The notes under the pieces are model-generated. The model made no database searches and was not told the DNA's origin. It saw nothing but the letters and a program-made list of their open reading frames with translations. This document shows positions 21,650-41,585 of a DNA stretch of 64,000 nt, piece after piece (the stretch's first letter is position 1; each line of letters begins with the position of its first letter). The DNA lies in the NCBI GenBank assembly GCA_000165345.1, contig CM000434.1, positions 608,001 through 672,000 of the forward strand, in the 5' to 3' direction. The translations under genes were made by a program, and so were the position numbers.

Positions 21650-24223
21650 ATGAAAACAGCTTCAGCTTCTTCTTCAGGAAGAAGGGTGGAGTACGAAGCA
21701 AAGGAAGTTAACGCGTCAGGTAATTCAAAGAAAGGTGAGCAAGTGGGATATAATAATGGAATTCAAGAGACAAAGTTCTCTAATAAGAAATCTAGTAATA
21801 ATTTGCCAAATAGGAAATTAAAGCTCGACCATTGCGTTTTAAACGGGCCAGAAAATCATTCGTCGATTGAAATTTGTAAAGATATCCATGAATCGAATTC
21901 AAATTGTAGCATTAATTCAGAATCTGCTCCAAAGAGTAACCCAAAGAGGGTGTTTGAAATGATTGACCGAACATTAAATACTCTATTAGAAAAAATAGTT
22001 CCAAGCGCAAAGAAGAAAAAGGAGAAGATGATAATTTTACAATGTGTAGAGCTTTTGGTGAGAGAAACATTTGGCGATTCAGCAAAGCTGTTCCTCACAG
22101 GATCAGCAGCAGCAGAAGTTGACTCAGAAATGAGTGATGTTGATTTAGTCGTATTCACTCCATTAGATTCAAGGCTTGCTTTAACGAAAATAGCAAGTCA
22201 ATTCAAAAGTATTAAGAAGAAGCATAAGGAGGATTGTTTGAGGTGTAGAAAGCACAGTGGACACCAGAAATTCAAAGCTGATACTGACCTCAGCTCAGAA
22301 TGTATAGAAGGACATTTATGCGAAATGGAAGTTAATGTGATTGCAACAGCAAAAGTTCCAGTAATGATGATAAAAAGTAGATATTCAAAGTTTAAGACAG
22401 AATGCGACGTATCTGTAAATATGTATACTTCTTTAATGCATTCCATACTATTTCAGTGTGTGCTTTATTCGTATCCAGAGCTCCAGCCAGTTTTAAGGTT
22501 GTTAAAGTATTGGCTACATATTAGGAGACTCCCAGTTGCTAAAGATGGCGGCCTTCCATGTATAGTTTGGCTTCTTCTTGCAATTGTTCACTGCAGTGTT
22601 AACGGAAATAAGTCTTCAAGGTCCCAAAGAGAGCATCTGGAAAGTATATGTATTCCAGCTAAACATATACTTTTGAGCTTACAAGTTCACTCTTCTGGAA
22701 CTAGTTTTCAAAGTACAGAATTTGGATCTCCTTTAAACTCATTCCAGAATGGATCAATCAGTACTTGTGAGTACCATGATTGTGACTCTAGAACATTTGA
22801 TACTGAACTGGGCAATCCTTCGAGCATTCCAAATTTCAAAATGGATATTCTAACTCACAATCGACAAATTGAAAGAAACAGGTATTTAAGTCATTCTAAT
22901 TCGAACAATATTAACTCAAAAGTTCCAGATACTATTGATTTTGGTGAAACTGGAACTACATTTATGGCTCTTGTTTCATTCTTCACCTCACTTTGGAACC
23001 GAAGCTCTCTCACCTGCAGTGTTTCAGTTATTAATAAGAATGTTCAACCTAAAGATGTTAAAACTGTTTCACAAATTATATTCAACAATGGTGGAATATG
23101 GGATGAAATATTAACTCTTGACGATCCCTCTGCTTCGTTAGTAAGACAACTTGAGCTATTAAAGTGCGAGCTAGATGATTTTGGCTTCAAGAACAACTTG
23201 CTTGCGCAAATATTCGATCCAGAAGATCCTAATAAACTCGAAAAAGAACATTTCTATTTTGAATCAAAGGAGGCTGAGAAAAGACACGAGTTGGAAATTA
23301 GTCTAGCCAGCATCCTACCACCAAGTGATTGCTTGATGGTTTCTAACCTTGCTGCAAGAATTACTTGTGGTACCTGGTTAGTCTATTTGTACGAGCTTAA
23401 AAGATGCCACAATATTTTGGAAACTTACTTACAACAAATCGCAATTTCTACGAATGAAGTCAGCGAACAAGAGTTAGTTAATGAACTTTTTCATCCAGTA
23501 AACGATGAGATATACCGAATTCCAGCAAAATTGTCAACAAAAACTCCCGTATGCATGTATCCGTGTATGGATTTAGACCTCATTATTGAAAACAATATCA
23601 TCGCTTTGGTCCAAGTTCCATATTTTGAGCAAAACCACAAATTCTGTTTGGTACTCATATATGGCCACTTAGTTATTATGAGAATTGAAAATATCTGTGT
23701 AGATTGGGAGGGAGGATGGTGGAGCAAAGAGTTCCTCAGTAGAAGAGATGTAAGGTCAGTGCTTCATGGGTCTCTCTTCTCTCCTATCCCCCTTTCATTC
23801 AGTCATCTAGGAAATGGGGGGTCAGCCTGCTGCATCCTGCAGCCATTAGATTCTAGAACTATTAATTGTTTACCAAAAAATGACCAAAGTGACTTCAATT
23901 CAAAGGACATAGTAATTGACGAAATTATGGTTAACCCTGCCGTATTCATCACTCTTCTAAATGATGTTGAATGGTATTCAGTTGATGATATGAATGGGTT
24001 CTACATTATGCCCGTTAAAGAATATTACAGATTCCTCGATATGGAGTCCATTGCAAAGGAATCCCCATATTGGCATGAGAATTACTTTGGAAAAAATAAT
24101 TATTTGCAGCCACATGTTCCAAGTTGTAGATATTGTAAAAAAACTTCAAATTCTACTGGTATGGAAAAGATCCTCCAGTACAAAAACCAATTTTGGGCAA
24201 TTAAGAGAAAGAGTATCTCGTAA
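21650..24223 (+). CDS. Pol-beta-superfamily nucleotidyltransferase of the Cid1/GLD-2/TENT type (non-canonical poly(A) polymerase or terminal uridylyltransferase-like)
   Basis: ATG at 21650. The NTase motif is LTGSAAAEVDSEMSDVDLVVF (G-S...D-x-D). A downstream PAP-associated-like helix, LRLLKYWLHIRRLPVAKDGGLPCIVWLLLAIVH, follows. There are long unrelated N- and C-terminal extensions. Confidence 0.65.
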   Translation: MKTASASSSGRRVEYEAKEVNASGNSKKGEQVGYNNGIQETKFSNKKSSNNLPNRKLKLDHCVLNGPENHSSIEICKDIHESNSNCSINSESAPKSNPKRVFEMIDRTLNTLLEKIVPSAKKKKEKMIILQCVELLVRETFGDSAKLFLTGSAAAEVDSEMSDVDLVVFTPLDSRLALTKIASQFKSIKKKHKEDCLRCRKHSGHQKFKADTDLSSECIEGHLCEMEVNVIATAKVPVMMIKSRYSKFKTECDVSVNMYTSLMHSILFQCVLYSYPELQPVLRLLKYWLHIRRLPVAKDGGLPCIVWLLLAIVHCSVNGNKSSRSQREHLESICIPAKHILLSLQVHSSGTSFQSTEFGSPLNSFQNGSISTCEYHDCDSRTFDTELGNPSSIPNFKMDILTHNRQIERNRYLSHSNSNNINSKVPDTIDFGETGTTFMALVSFFTSLWNRSSLTCSVSVINKNVQPKDVKTVSQIIFNNGGIWDEILTLDDPSASLVRQLELLKCELDDFGFKNNLLAQIFDPEDPNKLEKEHFYFESKEAEKRHELEISLASILPPSDCLMVSNLAARITCGTWLVYLYELKRCHNILETYLQQIAISTNEVSEQELVNELFHPVNDEIYRIPAKLSTKTPVCMYPCMDLDLIIENNIIALVQVPYFEQNHKFCLVLIYGHLVIMRIENICVDWEGGWWSKEFLSRRDVRSVLHGSLFSPIPLSFSHLGNGGSACCILQPLDSRTINCLPKNDQSDFNSKDIVIDEIMVNPAVFITLLNDVEWYSVDDMNGFYIMPVKEYYRFLDMESIAKESPYWHENYFGKNNYLQPHVPSCRYCKKTSNSTGMEKILQYKNQFWAIKRKSIS

Positions 24224-24654: not shown

Positions 24655-26205
24655 TTACCTATATGTTCTTGGTAGTGGGGTCTTTAGATCGTCATCTGTT
24701 AAATGGTGGTTACTGTCAATTTCCTTAAATTCTGGTTTTACTGTATGACGATAATAATCTAATTCTTTCAAATTAAAGTCCGTTTCTTCAAGGCCAGTAA
24801 ATTGACGAAGTTGTTTCCTTGCAACTGTTGCTTGGAACTTCCAGTTATTAGGAATACTAGTATTTGACTCATTAATCTTTCTAATAGAGCTCATTCCTGA
24901 AATAGTTGATTTACAGTTCAATATCGGAGAATTCTCCTCCGAATTCTTAAAATTTTCTTTAGAACCCTCTAGCGTACCGAATGATTGTCTTCCCAAGTGT
25001 GCTAAACTATTCATTGATAGGAAACCGCGCAACTTGGGAAGTTTTTGAGGTTGCATGCGTGCATGCAGTTCTGGTTTTTGGTCAGTATGCTGGCTTTGCG
25101 CTTCTCTGGGTTCAGAGTCCTGCTTTTTTAATTGCTCAAAAAATGCAAGAGAAGAATTATCATGGTTTTCCTGCGTTCGGTTATTATTCAATATATTAGA
25201 TTTTGAAATAGAGGAAGTTGTATCTGATTTAGACCAATTTGAATTACCTTCTTTCTTTTCAGAAAGAAGCATAGAGTCTAGGACGCCTCTGAGTTGGGCC
25301 TTTTTACTTTCTGAACGCATTTGTGTTGCAAATTTTGGAGTCTTAGGAACAGTAGTATTTCTCCTTGGAATACCGTATTTACTTCCAACTACTTCTTTAG
25401 TTACATTCATTTCTGTAGTGATTGTATCTAAAGATGGGTCGCTATTACTCAAATTAAATTTCTTTATAGATTCCAAGATAGTTTTAATACGCCTATCTTC
25501 ACTAAACTCCTTATTTTTTGTTGAAACTTCCTCATTAAATTTATCTTTCAAACTTCCTAATTTCTCATATAGTTCTTTGGATTTGCTTGCTGCTCTAGCA
25601 TCCGTTGCGAAGCTAAAAGGCTTGGGAACTGTTGTAGCCTTCGAAAAAGTGCTTACCCTTGATTCTGCACCAATAGATGACGTGGATCTGGCTGACATTG
25701 GAGCAGCGGGAATTCTTCCATTGTAAAGCTGATGTAAATTCAGACCTAGTTCAGCTTTGTAAATATTGGAACCCGAAGATGAAGATCTATTATGTTTTAG
25801 CCTTTGCTCTGCTCTTTCAGAAGTTGCAAATTCAAACCCCTTTGGTGTTGTGACATTTGTTCGAGAAGCCCTGCTTGAGTTGGAGAAGCTTCTAGGTTGC
25901 TTTTCTAAGCCAATCTCTTGATTCACGTCTGGTTTTGTATTATTTTTGCCCAAATGTGATAGAGTGGAGCTTCTGTTAATTCTTATTGAAGTTCTTAATG
26001 ATCTACAAGAAGGAAGCTGAACTGAAAGCCTTTTTTGTACTTCTGATTGCTGCCCATTTACTGATCTTGTACTTGTTAATCCTTTGCTGATACTTGAGTT
26101 ATTTATCTCACTCTTTGGAGTCAAGCCAGTAGATATGCAGCTTAAAGATAAAGAATCCAGCCTTAAATGGCTTGGAATCGCCAGCTTCTTCGTGCGTTCG
26201 CTCAT
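24655..26205 (-). CDS. Ser-rich low-complexity protein carrying three TPX2-type motifs (TVPKPFSFATDARA-like); putative microtubule-associated protein
   Basis: ATG is the revcomp of cat at 26203-26205. The three copies are TPKGFEFATSERAEQR (aa ~120-135), TVPKPFSFATDARAASK (aa ~192-208) and TVPKTPKFATQMRSESK (aa ~285-300). They match the TPX2/WVD2 signature (T)VP.PF.F.T(D/E).RA and map to about 25315-25850. Confidence 0.5.
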   Translation of the reverse strand: MSERTKKLAIPSHLRLDSLSLSCISTGLTPKSEINNSSISKGLTSTRSVNGQQSEVQKRLSVQLPSCRSLRTSIRINRSSTLSHLGKNNTKPDVNQEIGLEKQPRSFSNSSRASRTNVTTPKGFEFATSERAEQRLKHNRSSSSGSNIYKAELGLNLHQLYNGRIPAAPMSARSTSSIGAESRVSTFSKATTVPKPFSFATDARAASKSKELYEKLGSLKDKFNEEVSTKNKEFSEDRRIKTILESIKKFNLSNSDPSLDTITTEMNVTKEVVGSKYGIPRRNTTVPKTPKFATQMRSESKKAQLRGVLDSMLLSEKKEGNSNWSKSDTTSSISKSNILNNNRTQENHDNSSLAFFEQLKKQDSEPREAQSQHTDQKPELHARMQPQKLPKLRGFLSMNSLAHLGRQSFGTLEGSKENFKNSEENSPILNCKSTISGMSSIRKINESNTSIPNNWKFQATVARKQLRQFTGLEETDFNLKELDYYRHTVKPEFKEIDSNHHLTDDDLKTPLPRTYR

Positions 26206-26805: not shown

Positions 26806-28071
26806 TTATCGGATGTTTGGAACAACTGCATATCCAAAGACTTGTCTTCCTGGAGGTGGCTGCATAGGTGGTTGGTTTTGAGGAATAATTGGAGCTCTGC
26901 TATTATATGGCGGATTTTGAGGGGCATTCGGTGTGCCAGGAGGTGGGATGAGTGGCATATTTCCATGATTCCTGTTTGCACCGGTAGCTCCGCAGAAGCA
27001 AAAACCTCCAATAATGCAACTAATTATAAGGATAATAACAATGACTGAGATAGTCAATGGGCCGATGAATGAATTCTTATTATCTGATCCATTGTAGTTT
27101 TTATTCATGTACTCAAAATCGCCATTATCTCTAGTTTGAGGGGGCATTTGAGGAGCTTGAGGTGGAACCTGAGGTGGAACTTGAGGTGGGCCTTGAGTAG
27201 GGAATCTAGGAATCTGAGGTGGTGTAACATAACCAGGATGCCCAGGCATTTGTGGTACTTGCATTGGAGCATATAATGGCGCAATACTTGGCTGTGCAAT
27301 AATAACAGGTTGGATGTGCCTATTAACAACTTCAACTCGTTTAAGTTTATTAGCCTTGCTATCTTTGTTTTTTCTAACTTTTTTCTGATGATGACTAACA
27401 ACCTTATACTCCTCTCTTTCTCCGCTTTTATTAATAATATAATATCTCTTCCCAATCTCGCTTCTCCTAGCATTTCTATCTTTAGTGCATTTAACTCTAT
27501 TCTTTTTCGACTCGTTGATAATTATAACTCTGCAATCTCCAGTCTTACTTGAATGGTTATGCTTAGAGCAAGAACATGATTCCGAAGTCTTTGAATTTTT
27601 ATCGCTTGATGCCCTTGTATCAGCATTATTCACAAATAAAGTGTTTTCACTCAATTTCAATGTTTCTGTATCCAAAGAAGCTGATACCTTTTGCTCTGAA
27701 TCAATTTTAGTAGCTGGCTCCTCAATTGTTGTATTCCTGGGAATATCGCTAGAGTATATAACACTACTTGATGGAACAAAGCCTAATACGTCTTCATTCC
27801 CTGTTGGAGAATCAGTATATGGATCCTTAATACTATCAGAATCAACTTTACTTTTGGCAGTCTCTTCAATGGGAGAAGGATATTCCGCGTTCATCATGCT
27901 AATTAGTGTACTAATACTAATTCCTGCTTGTTTTGCTTCATCTTCAAGCTCACTAAGGGTAATATTATGTTTTTTACAAAATTGTAAAATTTCTTCTCCG
28001 CTACAGAATAAAAAAATACTTTGAAATAGCCCCAAAAAAATAAACGGCAGTAAAGCCCTCAACGATACCAT
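26806..28071 (-). CDS. Type I membrane protein: signal peptide, extracellular Ser/Thr-rich domain, one TM helix and a proline-rich cytoplasmic tail with PPQ repeats and PPxY-like motifs
   Basis: ATG is the revcomp of cat at 28069-28071. The signal peptide is MVSLRALLPFIFLGLFQSIFLFCSG. Proline repeats read PPQIPRFPTQGPPQVPPQVPPQAPQMPPQ. The TM helix is IGPLTISVIVIILIISCIIGGFCFC. The tail reads PPPGTPNAPQNPPYNSRAPIIPQNQPPMQPPPG. Confidence 0.6.
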   Translation of the reverse strand: MVSLRALLPFIFLGLFQSIFLFCSGEEILQFCKKHNITLSELEDEAKQAGISISTLISMMNAEYPSPIEETAKSKVDSDSIKDPYTDSPTGNEDVLGFVPSSSVIYSSDIPRNTTIEEPATKIDSEQKVSASLDTETLKLSENTLFVNNADTRASSDKNSKTSESCSCSKHNHSSKTGDCRVIIINESKKNRVKCTKDRNARRSEIGKRYYIINKSGEREEYKVVSHHQKKVRKNKDSKANKLKRVEVVNRHIQPVIIAQPSIAPLYAPMQVPQMPGHPGYVTPPQIPRFPTQGPPQVPPQVPPQAPQMPPQTRDNGDFEYMNKNYNGSDNKNSFIGPLTISVIVIILIISCIIGGFCFCGATGANRNHGNMPLIPPPGTPNAPQNPPYNSRAPIIPQNQPPMQPPPGRQVFGYAVVPNIR

Positions 28072-34492: not shown

Positions 34493-35956
34493 TTAATTGG
34501 TTGTCCTAGTTAGCTCAAGCTTGCTCCTCAGTTCTTCATTTTCTTTCCTCAGAATTTCCAATTTACGAACAGAAACGTCTAATAAGCTAACTAAAACAGC
34601 GTTTTGTTCCTCACTTTTCTCCAACTCATCCATTAGATATTCAATCTTCTCCCTATCACCTCCTGCTTTAAGCTTATCTTTAATTCCTTGCAGAATTTTC
34701 CTGCGAATTAGGCTATCTAGACCTGTCTTGAACTCTTCTATAGACTGATCTGCCTTTTTAGGCTCTTGATCCTCCGCTAAAGACTGTGGTTTCCGGGTTT
34801 CTGAAGATTTTTGAACCAAGGCTCCAATATCAGATAAAGCAATAGAATGCGAGCTACTGCAAACAACTTGAACAATATTCTTGTTTTGTAAGATTGGGTG
34901 TTTAGAAGGCATATTTGGATGTATTCCTTGAATTCCATGTCCAATATTTTTTGTCATACCCCAAGTATATATATCTCCAACATCGGAAAGAGCTACTGAA
35001 TGGGAATTACCGCATGAGATATCCACAATAAACGCTTTTTCGAGGTTAGAAAGTCTTTTTGGGGACAAAAAGTCGTGTTCTGGACCATTAAAAATGTGGC
35101 CAAGTCTTCCTCCTTGTCCCCAAGTATATACCTTGCCACACTTTGTGACAGCAGCTGAGTGTTGACTTCCTAAAGAAACCTTTGTTATCTGAATATCTTC
35201 CAAAGGTCCTTCTAATAGTCTTGGAATCAAAACGTCGTCAGTTGACCCAAAGCCAAGCTTTCCAAAAGCCCCTCCTCCGAACATATATAACTTTCCAGTA
35301 ACAAGCAAAATTGCTGTGTGATGTCCTCCACATGATATCTCTTTAATTGGAAGCCCTGCCAAACTTTCTATAAGCTTTGGAGTAAATATATCTTGAGTAT
35401 CTCCATGGCCTAATCGTCCTTGGAGCCCCAGACCCCAAGTTAATGCCTTTTTATCATCAGTTAAACACCCTGTATGGTAACTTCCGCATGAAACCTGTAT
35501 TACTTTCTCTCCTTCCAAAGCTTTAACTTTCATTGGTTGGGAGACTACATTATTTGAAATACTTAACTCAAATTGTCCATGCCCAAGCTTGCCATTTTTA
35601 CTACAACCCCAAGTATAAAGCTCACCATTACTCAAGATTGCTGCTGTATGTCTATCGGAGCAAGCAACTTGAATAACATTTTTAAGACTTAGATTTACTC
35701 TAGGTACCAAACAATCCTCTAAATTACCAAAACCTAGTTGGCCGCATCCTCCATATCCCCATAGGATTAAATCACCAGAATTTGTTATTGCTGCTGAGTA
35801 ATTTGACCCACAGCTTACCTTTGATATGCTGCTTAGATGTCTAAGTCCATCAACTAGATGTGGCCCGGGACTTACTTCCTCGCCTTTAGAACCATGCTGT
35901 CCATATTCGGTTGAACCCCACACCACTACTCCAGATTTTGATAAATTCTGTCCCAT
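34493..35956 (-). CDS. RCC1-repeat (beta-propeller) protein with an N-terminal myristoylation-type MGxxxS motif and a C-terminal coiled coil
   Basis: ATG is the revcomp of cat at 35954-35956. The N-terminus is MGQNLSKS. There are at least six RCC1-like blades (WGSTEYGQHG, WGYGGCGQLG, WGCSKNGKLGHG, WGLGLQGRLGHG, FGGGAFGKLGFG, WGQGGRLGH). The C-terminal EKSEEQNAVLVSLLDVSVRKLEILRKENEELRSKLE segment is coiled coil. Confidence 0.8.
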   Translation of the reverse strand: MGQNLSKSGVVVWGSTEYGQHGSKGEEVSPGPHLVDGLRHLSSISKVSCGSNYSAAITNSGDLILWGYGGCGQLGFGNLEDCLVPRVNLSLKNVIQVACSDRHTAAILSNGELYTWGCSKNGKLGHGQFELSISNNVVSQPMKVKALEGEKVIQVSCGSYHTGCLTDDKKALTWGLGLQGRLGHGDTQDIFTPKLIESLAGLPIKEISCGGHHTAILLVTGKLYMFGGGAFGKLGFGSTDDVLIPRLLEGPLEDIQITKVSLGSQHSAAVTKCGKVYTWGQGGRLGHIFNGPEHDFLSPKRLSNLEKAFIVDISCGNSHSVALSDVGDIYTWGMTKNIGHGIQGIHPNMPSKHPILQNKNIVQVVCSSSHSIALSDIGALVQKSSETRKPQSLAEDQEPKKADQSIEEFKTGLDSLIRRKILQGIKDKLKAGGDREKIEYLMDELEKSEEQNAVLVSLLDVSVRKLEILRKENEELRSKLELTRTTN

Positions 35957-38744: not shown

Positions 38745-41018
38745 CTAAGCCTTTACTAGGGAGGACTTTCCTCCTCCTCCTTGGATTCCTTTAACAATAT
38801 TAGGAGGAGCTAATTTAGCAAAAATAGGCTTTAGTTTGGAGATATTTTCAATAGTTTTGGTTAATGAGTTACATTGCATTAGTAACTTTGTATACTTTGT
38901 TTTTGCATTGATTAGTGATCTTTCAAGCTGTTCAATTCTTTCTTCCTTCCTCAACAACCTTCTCTCATTTAGTTGACTTTGTGATTTTAGGTTTGAATTC
39001 TGTTCAACCATCTTTTGGTAAAGCTTTCCAAGTTGTTCCATATTTGTATCTAGTTGAGACATTCTTTCAAGCATACTTTTAGTATCTTGGTCATTAATAT
39101 CTAACTTTTTAGCACCTTTATTGCTTTCCTTTAATTGGAGCTCTAAATTAGCAATTCTAGCAACATTATCTTCAATAGTTTCTAATAATGCTTTATGTTC
39201 AGAGCTCCAAGCTGCATCTTCTTTTGGGTCTGTATTGCTTCTAATTGCAAGTAAGTATTCTCTAAGTTGTTGTATTTCACTAGAAAGACTTTGAAAAGCT
39301 TTGTTAGATTCATTTTCCTTTTCTTCATTTCTTCTTTGTGACTCCTCTGACTTATATTCTTCAATTCTGGCTTCTAAGTCGTGAATATGAATCTGTGATT
39401 GCTCAAGTTCTCCTATTAAAGACTTATTTTTGAGTTGAAGATGTTCAACAGTTTCGGCTTGGTCCTGCTGTTGATATTTTGTTTGACTTAACTCTTGGAT
39501 TAAATCGGAAAGTTTGATATTCAAATTTTCCTTTTCTTCAGACATTAACTTGAGATTATTTTCTTTTTCTGAAATCTCTTGCTTTAATTGAGTAATCTTT
39601 TCGCTGTTTTCTTTAAGTTGTTGTTTGGCTTCCTCCAACTCATCCAATTCATCATTATCTAAAGTTCTCATATTTAAAGTGGTCTTTTCAGATCCAGGAA
39701 TGATTCCTTCCTGAAGCTCTTTCCTTTCTCCAATATTCAAAGAAGAATTAAGTATAATACTACCTCCTTTATCTCCAGATGGTTTATTTTCAGGAAGTTC
39801 ACCTCCAAGCTTTTTAACTAACTCTTCGAGAGTTTGAATATAATTGTTTCTCTCTGCCAATTTTCTTTGTGCTGAGTTAAGAAGAACTTGTAATTGTTCA
39901 ACAGAGTATTGTTGGTTGACTTTAGGAGCATTCTTAACCATTTTAGCTCTGATTCCAAATCTTAAAGTACCAATAGTCTCAGATTCATTTACAATACTTG
40001 GAGAACAAGTAACAATTAAAGCTGTAAGAGAGTTCCCACCAAGGGAATTCTGAAGAATTCTTGTTAATTTCGAATCACGATAAGGAATAAAGTTTTTTGT
40101 ATTATCTGTTAGAGCATTGATAACATTTCCCAAGCAACTTAAAGATTTGTTAATGGTTTTAGCTTCATCCAAAGTTAATCCTTCTGCTCCAGTTTTACTA
40201 ATTTTTTCCGATCCTGCAAGATCAACAAGGAAAAGTTTTCCAACTTTAATACTAGAATCAAATACATTCTTTTGCTGAAGTTGTAACATAAAAATCAAAT
40301 GAGATCTTGACGAATATGAATTCATATTTGTAGATGCCACAGCTCTATGCTTATGTCCAAGAGCCATTAACTCAAAAACTTCCTCTGGAGAAGTCACAAA
40401 GTATTCACTTAAGTCCTTTACGTAAATACCATGTATCTTATCTTCATGTATTCTCAGATTACTTTTTGTCCCACTTGTGTCTAATAGATCTCTAATTCTT
40501 TCCATATAAACCTCGCAAATAGAAACTTTTAGTTGAAACTCAATATGTTCCTCAGCATTACTAATGGTTTCAAATACATCATGAACCATACGAGGAATAA
40601 CTCCCATCTTCTCATTGTCTCCAATTATACCTTCCATTGTAAATGTCTTACCACTAGAAGTCTGTCCATAAGCTAAAACTGTTCCATTAATACCTTTAAA
40701 TAGTTGATCTACAATTGGTTTTGCAGCAGTCTTATAAACATAACTTTGATTAGTATCCATAGGAAAAATATGATCTAAATAGAAAGTCCTTTCTTTTGTT
40801 TCACTATCACTTTTTGATTCTGATGAGCTAATCTCTATACATTGTTCAGATCTCACATTTACACACAGCAAGCCATTTCCATGGGTCTTTTCTGCTTCAT
40901 TTGGAGGTCTAACTCTGCAATATACATGGACTCCAGAACCTGAACCATGCTCATTACCTGTTGTTCCTGAAGTTCCGGATACATTTTCTATATTTCCTAA
41001 ATTCTCGTTTTCTCCCAT
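38745..41018 (-). CDS. N-terminal-motor kinesin (kinesin-1-like heavy chain) with a long coiled-coil stalk
   Basis: The track start at 41039 is a TTG; the ATG is the revcomp of cat at 41016-41018 (MGENEN...). Motor motifs present are the P-loop GQTSSGKTFTM, switch I SSRSHLIF and switch II LVDLAGSEK, plus the neck/coiled coil. The tail has a kinesin-1-like PIFAKLAPP motif. An E2F-like gtggcggg lies at about 41367-41374, upstream. Confidence 0.9.
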   Translation of the reverse strand: MGENENLGNIENVSGTSGTTGNEHGSGSGVHVYCRVRPPNEAEKTHGNGLLCVNVRSEQCIEISSSESKSDSETKERTFYLDHIFPMDTNQSYVYKTAAKPIVDQLFKGINGTVLAYGQTSSGKTFTMEGIIGDNEKMGVIPRMVHDVFETISNAEEHIEFQLKVSICEVYMERIRDLLDTSGTKSNLRIHEDKIHGIYVKDLSEYFVTSPEEVFELMALGHKHRAVASTNMNSYSSRSHLIFMLQLQQKNVFDSSIKVGKLFLVDLAGSEKISKTGAEGLTLDEAKTINKSLSCLGNVINALTDNTKNFIPYRDSKLTRILQNSLGGNSLTALIVTCSPSIVNESETIGTLRFGIRAKMVKNAPKVNQQYSVEQLQVLLNSAQRKLAERNNYIQTLEELVKKLGGELPENKPSGDKGGSIILNSSLNIGERKELQEGIIPGSEKTTLNMRTLDNDELDELEEAKQQLKENSEKITQLKQEISEKENNLKLMSEEKENLNIKLSDLIQELSQTKYQQQDQAETVEHLQLKNKSLIGELEQSQIHIHDLEARIEEYKSEESQRRNEEKENESNKAFQSLSSEIQQLREYLLAIRSNTDPKEDAAWSSEHKALLETIEDNVARIANLELQLKESNKGAKKLDINDQDTKSMLERMSQLDTNMEQLGKLYQKMVEQNSNLKSQSQLNERRLLRKEERIEQLERSLINAKTKYTKLLMQCNSLTKTIENISKLKPIFAKLAPPNIVKGIQGGGGKSSLVKA

Positions 41019-41585
41019 AATGCTACTACAATTCTTCAATGAGGAGGTAGCCTTTGATTTTATAGAAATAATTAATATAGCCCAGTTGTTTTTTGAGGTG
41101 GCTCTCTAATAATACTTTACAGAGTTTCTAGGTAAGTTCCCCTTAAAACACTGTTCAGTCAAACTTTACCTCCTATTATCCGAACCTTTAAAACATTGGC
41201 CAAACCTATTATTTTTCCTACTTTCCTCCTTTGAAATCCTAACCTTTTTTTTTCCTAATAAAATAAATCTTTATTTTCTAACATTCATGTAAAACTTGAC
41301 TTTCGGCTACATGCCGTCCAAGTGTGATTAAAATTCAGAATTCAACCTACACACCCTCAATTTACATTGTGGCGGGAAATTTGTTAATAAAAAAAAAAAT
41401 TGTGAATTTCTAATTAATGAAAAAAATAAAATAAATTTAGATGTAATGAATGAGGAAATAGTAAACAATTGTAAATTTAGAATCACTTAACAATTACATA
41501 CTTTTATAATCCAAATTCAAAGGGATTACTAGCTTTAAACACAAAACACTAATCGACTTATTTGAAAAGGAATTACAAAAATGAA

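Follow-up and report, generated by a model that had tools for sequence, protein, structure and literature searches.

A probable reduced relative of the spindle-assembly factor TPX2 encoded by cgd6_2710 of Cryptosporidium parvum

The product of cgd6_2710, a gene of Cryptosporidium parvum, is probably a reduced and highly divergent relative of the spindle-assembly factor TPX2. The gene lies at 24655..26205, on the minus strand, of the window analysed here, a 64-kb stretch of contig CM000434.1 (assembly GCA_000165345.1, positions 608,001–672,000) that is AT-rich (GC ~33%) and dense with intronless open reading frames (ORFs). In animals and plants, TPX2 is a central microtubule-nucleation and Aurora-scaffolding factor. 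The part of it recognisable in cgd6_2710 would be the central repeat region (amino acids (aa) ~60–320), represented by one degenerate and three well-kept loops which, with helices accompanying at least two of them, appear to be set in a disordered chain rich in Ser, Thr and Asn.

The ORF is complete from ATG to stop (516 aa plus stop) and is 100% identical, over its full length, to C. parvum Iowa II CAD98560.1/EAK89909.1 (UniProt Q5CX31), the product of an intronless gene, which public databases label hypothetical or uncharacterised. The gene identifier cgd6_2710 for Q5CX31 was taken from a published table (PMC10499817): Supplementary Data 1 of Zeeshan et al. 2023 (Nat Commun 14:5652) files ‘Q5CX31 / cgd6_2710’ under ‘TPX2 (spindle)’ for C. 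parvum. The same source scores TPX2 as absent in P. berghei, P. falciparum and T. gondii, its phyletic profiling indicating loss in the Plasmodium/Toxoplasma lineage. The TPX2 assignment is already published, then, as a bioinformatic supplementary-table entry; no main-text mention of the gene was found in the searchable literature. The present analysis adds an independent statistical confirmation of homology, shows that the match involves central PF12214-type loops and not PF06886, lists the canonical modules that are absent and links the gene to macrogamete-biased expression.

Homology to the TPX2 central repeat region

A sequence-only reading of this ORF had proposed three TPX2-type motifs at ~75–90 aa spacing (nt ~25315–25850). 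They were found at those positions, with cores TTPKGFEFATSER (aa 119–131), TVPKPFSFATDAR (aa 192–204) and TVPKTPKFATQMR (aa 285–297), all encoded on the minus strand and separated by 73 aa, then 93 aa. Only motif 2 fits the single strict pattern under which they had been described ([TS]VP.PF.[FL].T[DE].RA); motifs 1 and 3 do not. When the repeats were aligned with TPX2 motifs, all three fitted canonical loops, as had been anticipated, although of two classes rather than one. Motifs 1 and 2 are ridge-type (T.P.PF.[FL].T..R; loop cores TTPKGFEF and TVPKPFSF, respectively), while motif 3 belongs to the second canonical class, LT.PK[ST]P.[FL].T..R (class-2; loop core TVPKTPKF).

Recurrence of the three motifs by chance is excluded. 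Three or more copies of the minimal core F.?AT..R were seen in 0/200,000 composition-preserving shuffles. This pattern was picked after the motifs had been seen, and position-specific scoring matrices (PSSMs) were therefore made only from canonical TPX2 proteins (n = 69, from plants, vertebrates, a ciliate, chytrids, Thecamonas, Plasmodiophora and others). The ridge-type PSSM (222 canonical loops, consensus k.lTePePFhL.tdeR) scored motif 2 at 31.9 bits and motif 1 at 26.3 bits, and the class-2 PSSM (146 canonical loops, consensus LT.PkSP.L.tk.R) scored motif 3 at 21.1 bits, the top score among 2,000 shuffles being 16.9 bits for either matrix.

Orthologs of cgd6_2710 were found in 12 Cryptosporidium species, with identity falling to 34–35% in gastric species. 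The three motifs are kept in 12/12 species while the linkers diverge: the fraction of sequences carrying the majority residue is 0.83–0.89 in motifs compared with 0.43–0.68 in linkers, and the T, P, F, T and R positions of the motifs, including F124 and F197, are invariant. As a separate observation, the C. tyzzeri ortholog (P0015, TRY51275.1) is annotated as 564 aa, compared with 516 aa in C. parvum and C. hominis, and falls in the same 90% identity cluster; its extra length is probably a difference in start-codon annotation.

The sequence-only reading had expected both conservation of the motifs in related species and a match to PF06886. The second expectation failed: at E≤10 no PF06886 match was present in the C. 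parvum protein, and just one ortholog gave any (8.7 bits, E=2.2). Since the motifs are conserved, the reading nonetheless stands. The related Pfam model is PF12214 (TPX2 central/‘importin’ domain), and it too remains below threshold. It did not match the full-length C. parvum protein, in a type of scan that is insensitive to short loops in biased sequence, but was the top Pfam match of the motif-bearing segment alone (16.5 bits, E=0.011). Weak PF12214 matches were obtained in 8/12 orthologs, lying on the motif 1 stretch with the longer ones reaching motif 2 (best 19.6 bits, E=0.0012); the Pfam gathering thresholds are 29.5 bits for PF12214 and 25 bits for PF06886. A sequence search of PDB with the protein returned nothing, and one with the motif-region profile only chance coiled-coil matches. 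An NCBIfam scan gave no match, as expected for a eukaryotic protein. One homolog search with the motif-region alignment missed even the Cryptosporidium orthologs, which reflects a word-index limitation and is not evidence.

More sensitive comparisons connect the protein to TPX2 from both directions. A HMMER search of 1.84 billion representative proteins with a profile of the 12 orthologs recovered, outside the genus, exactly three proteins at E≤1e-3 (P0017, 3.4e-7; P0018, 8.1e-6; P0019, 4.2e-4), each matched over 4–9 stretches; no other apicomplexan protein was recovered. P0017 and P0018 pass the Pfam cutoffs for PF06886 (50.6 and 51.7 bits, respectively) and PF12214 (40 and 66.6 bits), and P0018, from the jakobid Andalucia godoyi, is annotated ‘Targeting protein for Xklp2 homolog’. 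In profile–profile alignment (hhalign), the Cryptosporidium alignment matched an alignment of 20 diverse members of the canonical set with 95% probability (E=4.1e-8, score 72, 223 columns, aa 60–320), compared with scores of 11–20 (E=0.21–0.97) for controls comprising the reversed profile and 20 column-shuffled ones. The alignment was colinear, placing a degenerate element, QLPSCRSLRTSIR (aa 63–75), and motifs 1, 2 and 3 on successive TPX2 loops, and motif 2 with its helix (aa 186–262) was sufficient for E=1.4e-7. Reciprocally, a hidden Markov model (HMM) built from canonical TPX2s only, with no Cryptosporidium sequence, matched cgd6_2710 alone among the 189 ORFs of the window (E=6.7e-9, filters off, Z=3900 for a proteome-sized search space), with three domains falling on motifs 1–3; 11/11 other orthologs were also matched. 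At the level of profile comparison, these results establish that the protein is homologous to canonical TPX2 over aa ~60–320. The proposal that the motifs are of TPX2 type is thereby upheld, in agreement with the published assignment (PMC10499817).

It could be supposed instead that an unrelated disordered protein, restricted to the genus, has acquired the motifs by convergence as short linear motifs (e.g. for importin binding, or TP sites under phospho-regulation), in which case the likeness to TPX2 would point neither to shared ancestry nor to microtubule binding. Each motif is just ~13 aa, no Pfam threshold is passed, and the protein has an OrthoMCL group of its own (OG5_195462; Tandel et al., PMC6877471), suggesting that pipelines found no clear relatives; moreover, ridge and wedge of human TPX2 overlap the importin-alpha site (PMC5679754), so that such loops can serve other partners. 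Convergence would not, however, account for the colinear alignment of four successive loops plus helix at E=4e-8 with clean shuffled controls, for a forward search of 1.84 billion proteins that found only TPX2s, for the specificity of the reciprocal HMM match, or for the co-occurrence of both canonical loop classes with the helix expected behind each, and we regard it as very unlikely.

Still less probable, to the point of being hardly credible, is that cgd6_2710 is no TPX2 but a relative of FAM161A/UPF0564 type, from the centriole inner-scaffold branch of the TPX2-repeat superfamily. To our knowledge, canonical centrioles have not been described in Cryptosporidium. FAM161A does carry PF loops of ridge-like form, and its homology to TPX2 extends over >200 residues (PMC7551519), but a Pfam scan gave no PF10595 match at E≤10 in 12/12 orthologs (no FAM161 profile–profile comparison was included), the significant external matches carry PF06886 and PF12214, and Cryptosporidium male gametes lack flagella (PMC6877471).

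Loop architecture and a proposed mode of microtubule binding

The description of the remainder of the protein as disordered and Ser/Thr/Asn-rich was borne out. Its composition is S 14.9%, T 7.9% and N 7.4%, and AlphaFold2, run with the 12-sequence alignment, gave a mean predicted local distance difference test score (pLDDT) of 44, with 392/516 residues below 50 and no globular domain. The sole confident elements are helices at 203–253 (pLDDT 70–84), 292–318 and 453–470. The predicted helices begin at or after loops, and motifs 2 and 3, at least, are followed by one. This recalls the TPX2 repeat as defined by Levine, in which a loop is succeeded by a charged helix of ~25 aa and then by an FKA±PxP loop (PMC7551519).

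All features of the protein are encoded on the minus strand. Motif 1, VTTPKGFEFATSERAEQR (25801..25854, aa 118–135), is a ridge-type TPX2 loop in which F124 is the equivalent of human TPX2 F307. Motif 2, ATTVPKPFSFATDARA (25591..25638, aa 190–205), is the best ridge-type loop, comparable to the human TPX2 ridge 300-GCTIVKPFNLSQ-311, with F197 as the F307 equivalent; the predicted helix behind it (25447..25599, aa 203–253) is the counterpart of the charged helix found behind every TPX2 loop, and includes the invariant pair F223-N224. Motif 3, TTVPKTPKFATQMRSESKKAQ (25294..25356, aa 284–304), is a class-2 loop (LT.PK[ST]P.[FL].T..R) running into predicted helix 292–318. Upstream of these, ‘loop 0’, QLPSCRSLRTSIRINR (25972..26019, aa 63–78), is a probable degenerate loop, placed on the first LT.P..P.L.T..R loop by hhalign and, in ortholog P0008, by PF12214; taken alone, its PSSM score is inside the null range.

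The human protein suggests how such loops might act. In a 3.3 Å cryo-electron microscopy structure of human TPX2 on microtubules, the ridge (300–311) lies along the protofilament crest, F307 inserts into a pocket across the longitudinal inter-dimer interface, and the substitutions F307A and F307E strongly lower microtubule binding (PMC5679754). Levine identified the ridge sequence GCTIVKPFNLSQ as one copy of a repeated ‘PF’ loop (PMC7551519). Motif 2 (TTVPKPFSFATD) and motif 1 (TTPKGFEFATS) match this ridge loop, and from that match, taken with the predicted helices, F124 and F197 would be expected to dock in inter-dimer pockets. By analogy, each ridge-type loop would run along the protofilament crest with its invariant Phe in the hydrophobic pocket between dimers, and the loops, carried on flexible linkers of 70–90 aa, could contact several tubulin dimers at once; such multivalent contacts would stabilise the lattice and so favour microtubule nucleation or stabilisation. 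On this basis we infer that cgd6_2710 binds microtubules. It is speculation that motif 2 and the invariant F223-N224, 26 residues downstream, form a ridge-plus-wedge module resembling that of human F307 and F334/H335; the distance would suit it, yet hhalign favours TPX2 repeats further along and no wedge signature (P.A.....F..TP.R) is present.

Expression, absent modules and probable function

In RNA-seq of sorted cells (Tandel et al. 2019, PMC6877471), cgd6_2710 showed mean log2 counts per million (CPM) of 5.69 in asexual stages in vitro, 9.40 in unfertilised females in vitro and 5.31 in females in vivo. Its mRNA is thus ~13-fold higher in in-vitro females than in asexual stages. According to the same study, females favour meiotic recombination, chromosome-segregation, cell-division and cytoskeletal genes, and fertilisation and meiosis take place in vivo only. 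The stockpiling of this mRNA in unfertilised macrogametes, together with genes for meiosis and segregation, suggests that the main job of the protein is probably the assembly of intranuclear spindles in post-fertilisation meiosis and sporogony, perhaps with a lower-level role in merogony. Macrogamete bias would in that case point to the stage that in-vitro culture fails to reach. The bias is indirect evidence, however, and would accord just as well with a role in the macrogamete that does not involve the spindle.

Such a role is the substance of another reading, in which cgd6_2710 is a TPX2-repeat protein but no spindle factor, decorating and stabilising microtubules outside mitosis, e.g. the few long ones at the cortex of zoites, or structures of the macrogamete or zygote. 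A parallel is offered by plants, whose WVD2/WDL and TPX2-like proteins work on cortical arrays, and TPX2-type loops are known in non-spindle microtubule-associated proteins, e.g. FAM161A (PMC7551519). It would also suit the expression peak, which falls in unfertilised macrogametes, cells that do not divide, rather than in the dividing asexual stages, and the lack of both an Aurora box and the C-terminal PF06886 domain, the latter being the kinesin-binding end in vertebrates (PMC5679754). Even so, we consider it unlikely, because many of the transcripts in macrogametes come from meiosis and segregation genes and are produced before they are needed (PMC6877471), because the match to the genuine TPX2 central region is colinear and the significant matches beyond the genus are to full TPX2s only, and because the published phylogenetic profile files cgd6_2710 as TPX2 (PMC10499817).

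Several observations nevertheless weigh against cgd6_2710 being a TPX2 relative that serves the spindle. An Aurora-binding box was not detectable (aa 1–59, hhalign vs TPX2 E=0.27), F[KRHQ]A.P (FKAxP loops) occurs 0 times in 12/12 orthologs compared with a mean of 3.17 per canonical TPX2, and hhalign placed nothing on the C-terminal PF06886 TPX2 domain. Not one of the 12 orthologs reaches any Pfam curated threshold (PF12214 maximum 19.6 bits, PF06886 maximum 8.7 bits). P0018 was both a match of the Cryptosporidium profile and the seed of the canonical set, which introduces a mild selection bias into the hhalign result, the other 19 TPX2 sequences having been selected independently of Cryptosporidium. 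The signal consists of short repeated loops, and orthology is therefore indistinguishable from membership of the TPX2-repeat superfamily. Transcript levels were low among in-vivo ‘females’, a pool in which post-fertilisation stages are included, and timing therefore backs a meiotic role only indirectly. Finally, a literature search found no binding, localisation or phenotype experiments on cgd6_2710. With several parts of a full TPX2 absent, ‘TPX2-like’ is the safer label, and the protein is best described, as far as its sequence goes, as a reduced TPX2-like protein of the central repeat region and not as a full canonical TPX2.

The Aurora box, the PF06886 domain and the FKAxP loops were all undetected, and the protein would probably be a microtubule stabiliser or nucleator, and not a scaffold that activates Aurora and targets kinesin as in animals. 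The suggestion that it is a candidate spindle or microtubule-associated factor is supported, as a candidacy, through its homology to TPX2.

Four further boxes, at aa 8–33, 389–408, 450–466 and 508–516, are invariant in 12/12 Cryptosporidium species but lack an equivalent in canonical TPX2. The N-terminal box, LAIPSHLRLDSLSLSCISTGLTPKSE (26107..26184, aa 8–33), is not detectable as the TPX2 Aurora-binding box: the box pattern (Y.F.AP.F.DF ... WF; PF09041 in vertebrates) was present in 36/69 canonical TPX2s compared with 0/12 Cryptosporidium sequences, which, with the hhalign value of E=0.27, rules out on sequence a canonical Aurora-binding box at this position. It could be a docking site of another kind. 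TPX2 homology offers no explanation for the box LPKLRGFLSMNSLAHLGRQS (24982..25041, aa 389–408). The third, ‘motif 4’, SIPNNWKFQATVARKQL (24808..24858, aa 450–466), is predicted to be helical (pLDDT 72–75) and resembles a TPX2 loop by eye. Its core, IPNNWKFQATVAR (aa 452–463), was set aside as a fourth TPX2 loop for want of statistical support (hhalign E=0.3–0.4, PSSM −16.7 bits, a one-residue insertion), although it may be a diverged one. The last is the C-terminal box KTPLPRTYR (aa 508–516). All four are candidates for lineage-specific partner-binding sites.

A more elaborate proposal, which we put forward tentatively and hold to be rather unlikely as a whole, is that cgd6_2710 is a stripped-down TPX2 made up of nearly nothing but tubulin-gripping loops. 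Its Aurora and kinesin modules would have been lost, the docking sites taking their place (e.g. for the single Aurora kinase, cgd2_3190) would be the C-terminal boxes and, at the N-terminus, the box IPSHLRLDSLSL...TGLTPKSE, and the protein would be loaded into macrogametes for acentriolar, intranuclear assembly of the meiotic spindle.

Among the neighbouring genes, the adjoining ORF (26806–28071, minus strand, 421 aa) combines a hydrophobic N-terminal end with a Pro/Gln-rich tract (PPQVPPQVPPQAPQMPPQ) and, close to the C-terminus, a further hydrophobic stretch; it gave no Pfam match and, from these features, looks like a secreted or membrane protein. At 34493–35956 (minus strand, 487 aa; cgd6_2770 by gene order) is a gene with RCC1 repeats (PF00415, 272 bits; RCC1-like domain, 282 bits). 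RCC1 is the guanine nucleotide exchange factor for Ran and acts upstream of TPX2 release in other eukaryotes. The RCC1-repeat gene is ~8 kb from the TPX2-like gene, a linkage that is probably coincidental in a eukaryote. The upstream neighbour (21650–24223, plus strand, 857 aa; cgd6_2700 by gene order) encodes a nucleotidyltransferase resembling non-canonical poly(A) polymerases and terminal uridylyltransferases (PF22600, 47 bits) and is strongly female-enriched (~5.3 in asexual stages vs 9.9 in females, in vitro and in vivo; PMC6877471). A kinesin with an N-terminal motor domain (PF00225, 370 bits) is encoded at 38745–41039 (minus strand, 764 aa; cgd6_2790 by gene order). It shares a co-expressed-gene cluster sheet with cgd6_2710 (supplementary file 5, PMC6877471) and is likewise high in macrogametes (~7.3, then 11.6, then 8.8 log2 CPM; PMC6877471). 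As a kinesin-5 or kinesin-12 partner of TPX2 it was rejected, since its motor is nearest kinesin-1 (357 bits) compared with kinesin-5 (243 bits) and KIF15 (238 bits), making it no obvious TPX2 partner.

Imaging of how Cryptosporidium builds its intranuclear spindle has only begun (10.1101/2025.09.30.679541), and TPX2 and Aurora both go unmentioned in the recent preprint on mitosis in C. parvum. A confirmed reduced TPX2 relative would offer a handle on this process, and also a naturally minimal TPX2 for structure–function work, with ridge loops but without Aurora, FKAxP and C-terminal modules. Should cgd6_2710 prove to be a loops-only spindle factor, it would be specific to Cryptosporidium among the medically important apicomplexans, given the loss of TPX2 in Plasmodium and Toxoplasma, and would provide a minimal natural model of TPX2. 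The practical value is modest: a more informative database entry should replace ‘hypothetical protein’, and the gene is a reasonable one to tag.

Comparison with known TPX2-repeat proteins

Plant WVD2/WDL and TPXL proteins resemble cgd6_2710 in being short and largely disordered and in carrying part of the TPX2 repeat machinery, and some of the plant proteins also lack the Aurora-binding region. The PF06886 ‘KLEEK’ domain that defines WVD2/WDL proteins, however, is undetected in cgd6_2710, where central PF12214-type loops are kept instead. FAM161A (UPF0564, PF10595) similarly has PF loops ~70–90 residues apart and is a remote TPX2 homolog found only by profile–profile methods, but it is a protein of the centriole and cilium, structures absent or reduced in Cryptosporidium, and cgd6_2710 has no PF10595 signal.

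From TPX2 itself (human, Xenopus, Arabidopsis and Andalucia; PF12214 plus PF06886), cgd6_2710 differs in size (516 aa vs ~700–800 aa) and in number of loops (3–4 vs ~8–9 repeats), in having no detectable Aurora box (YxFxAPxFxDF...WF), PF06886 domain or FKA±PxP loops and no recognisable wedge helix (P.A.....F[HQ]..TP.R[FY]), in its Pfam scores below cutoff, and in its four genus-specific invariant boxes. It shares with TPX2 the repeated ridge-type and class-2 loops, the succession of loop and helix in an otherwise disordered chain, and an invariant Phe equivalent to human F307. The last comparison is with P0019 (347 aa, from environmental or SRA assemblies in Logan/ENA), whose loops are nearer the canonical consensus than those of cgd6_2710 and which has no similarity to the Cryptosporidium-specific boxes. 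Like cgd6_2710 it is ‘minimal’ and Asn/Ser-rich, with at least five LTEPKPFxFxTExR loops and little else, and so represents a second ‘loops-only’ TPX2-like protein.

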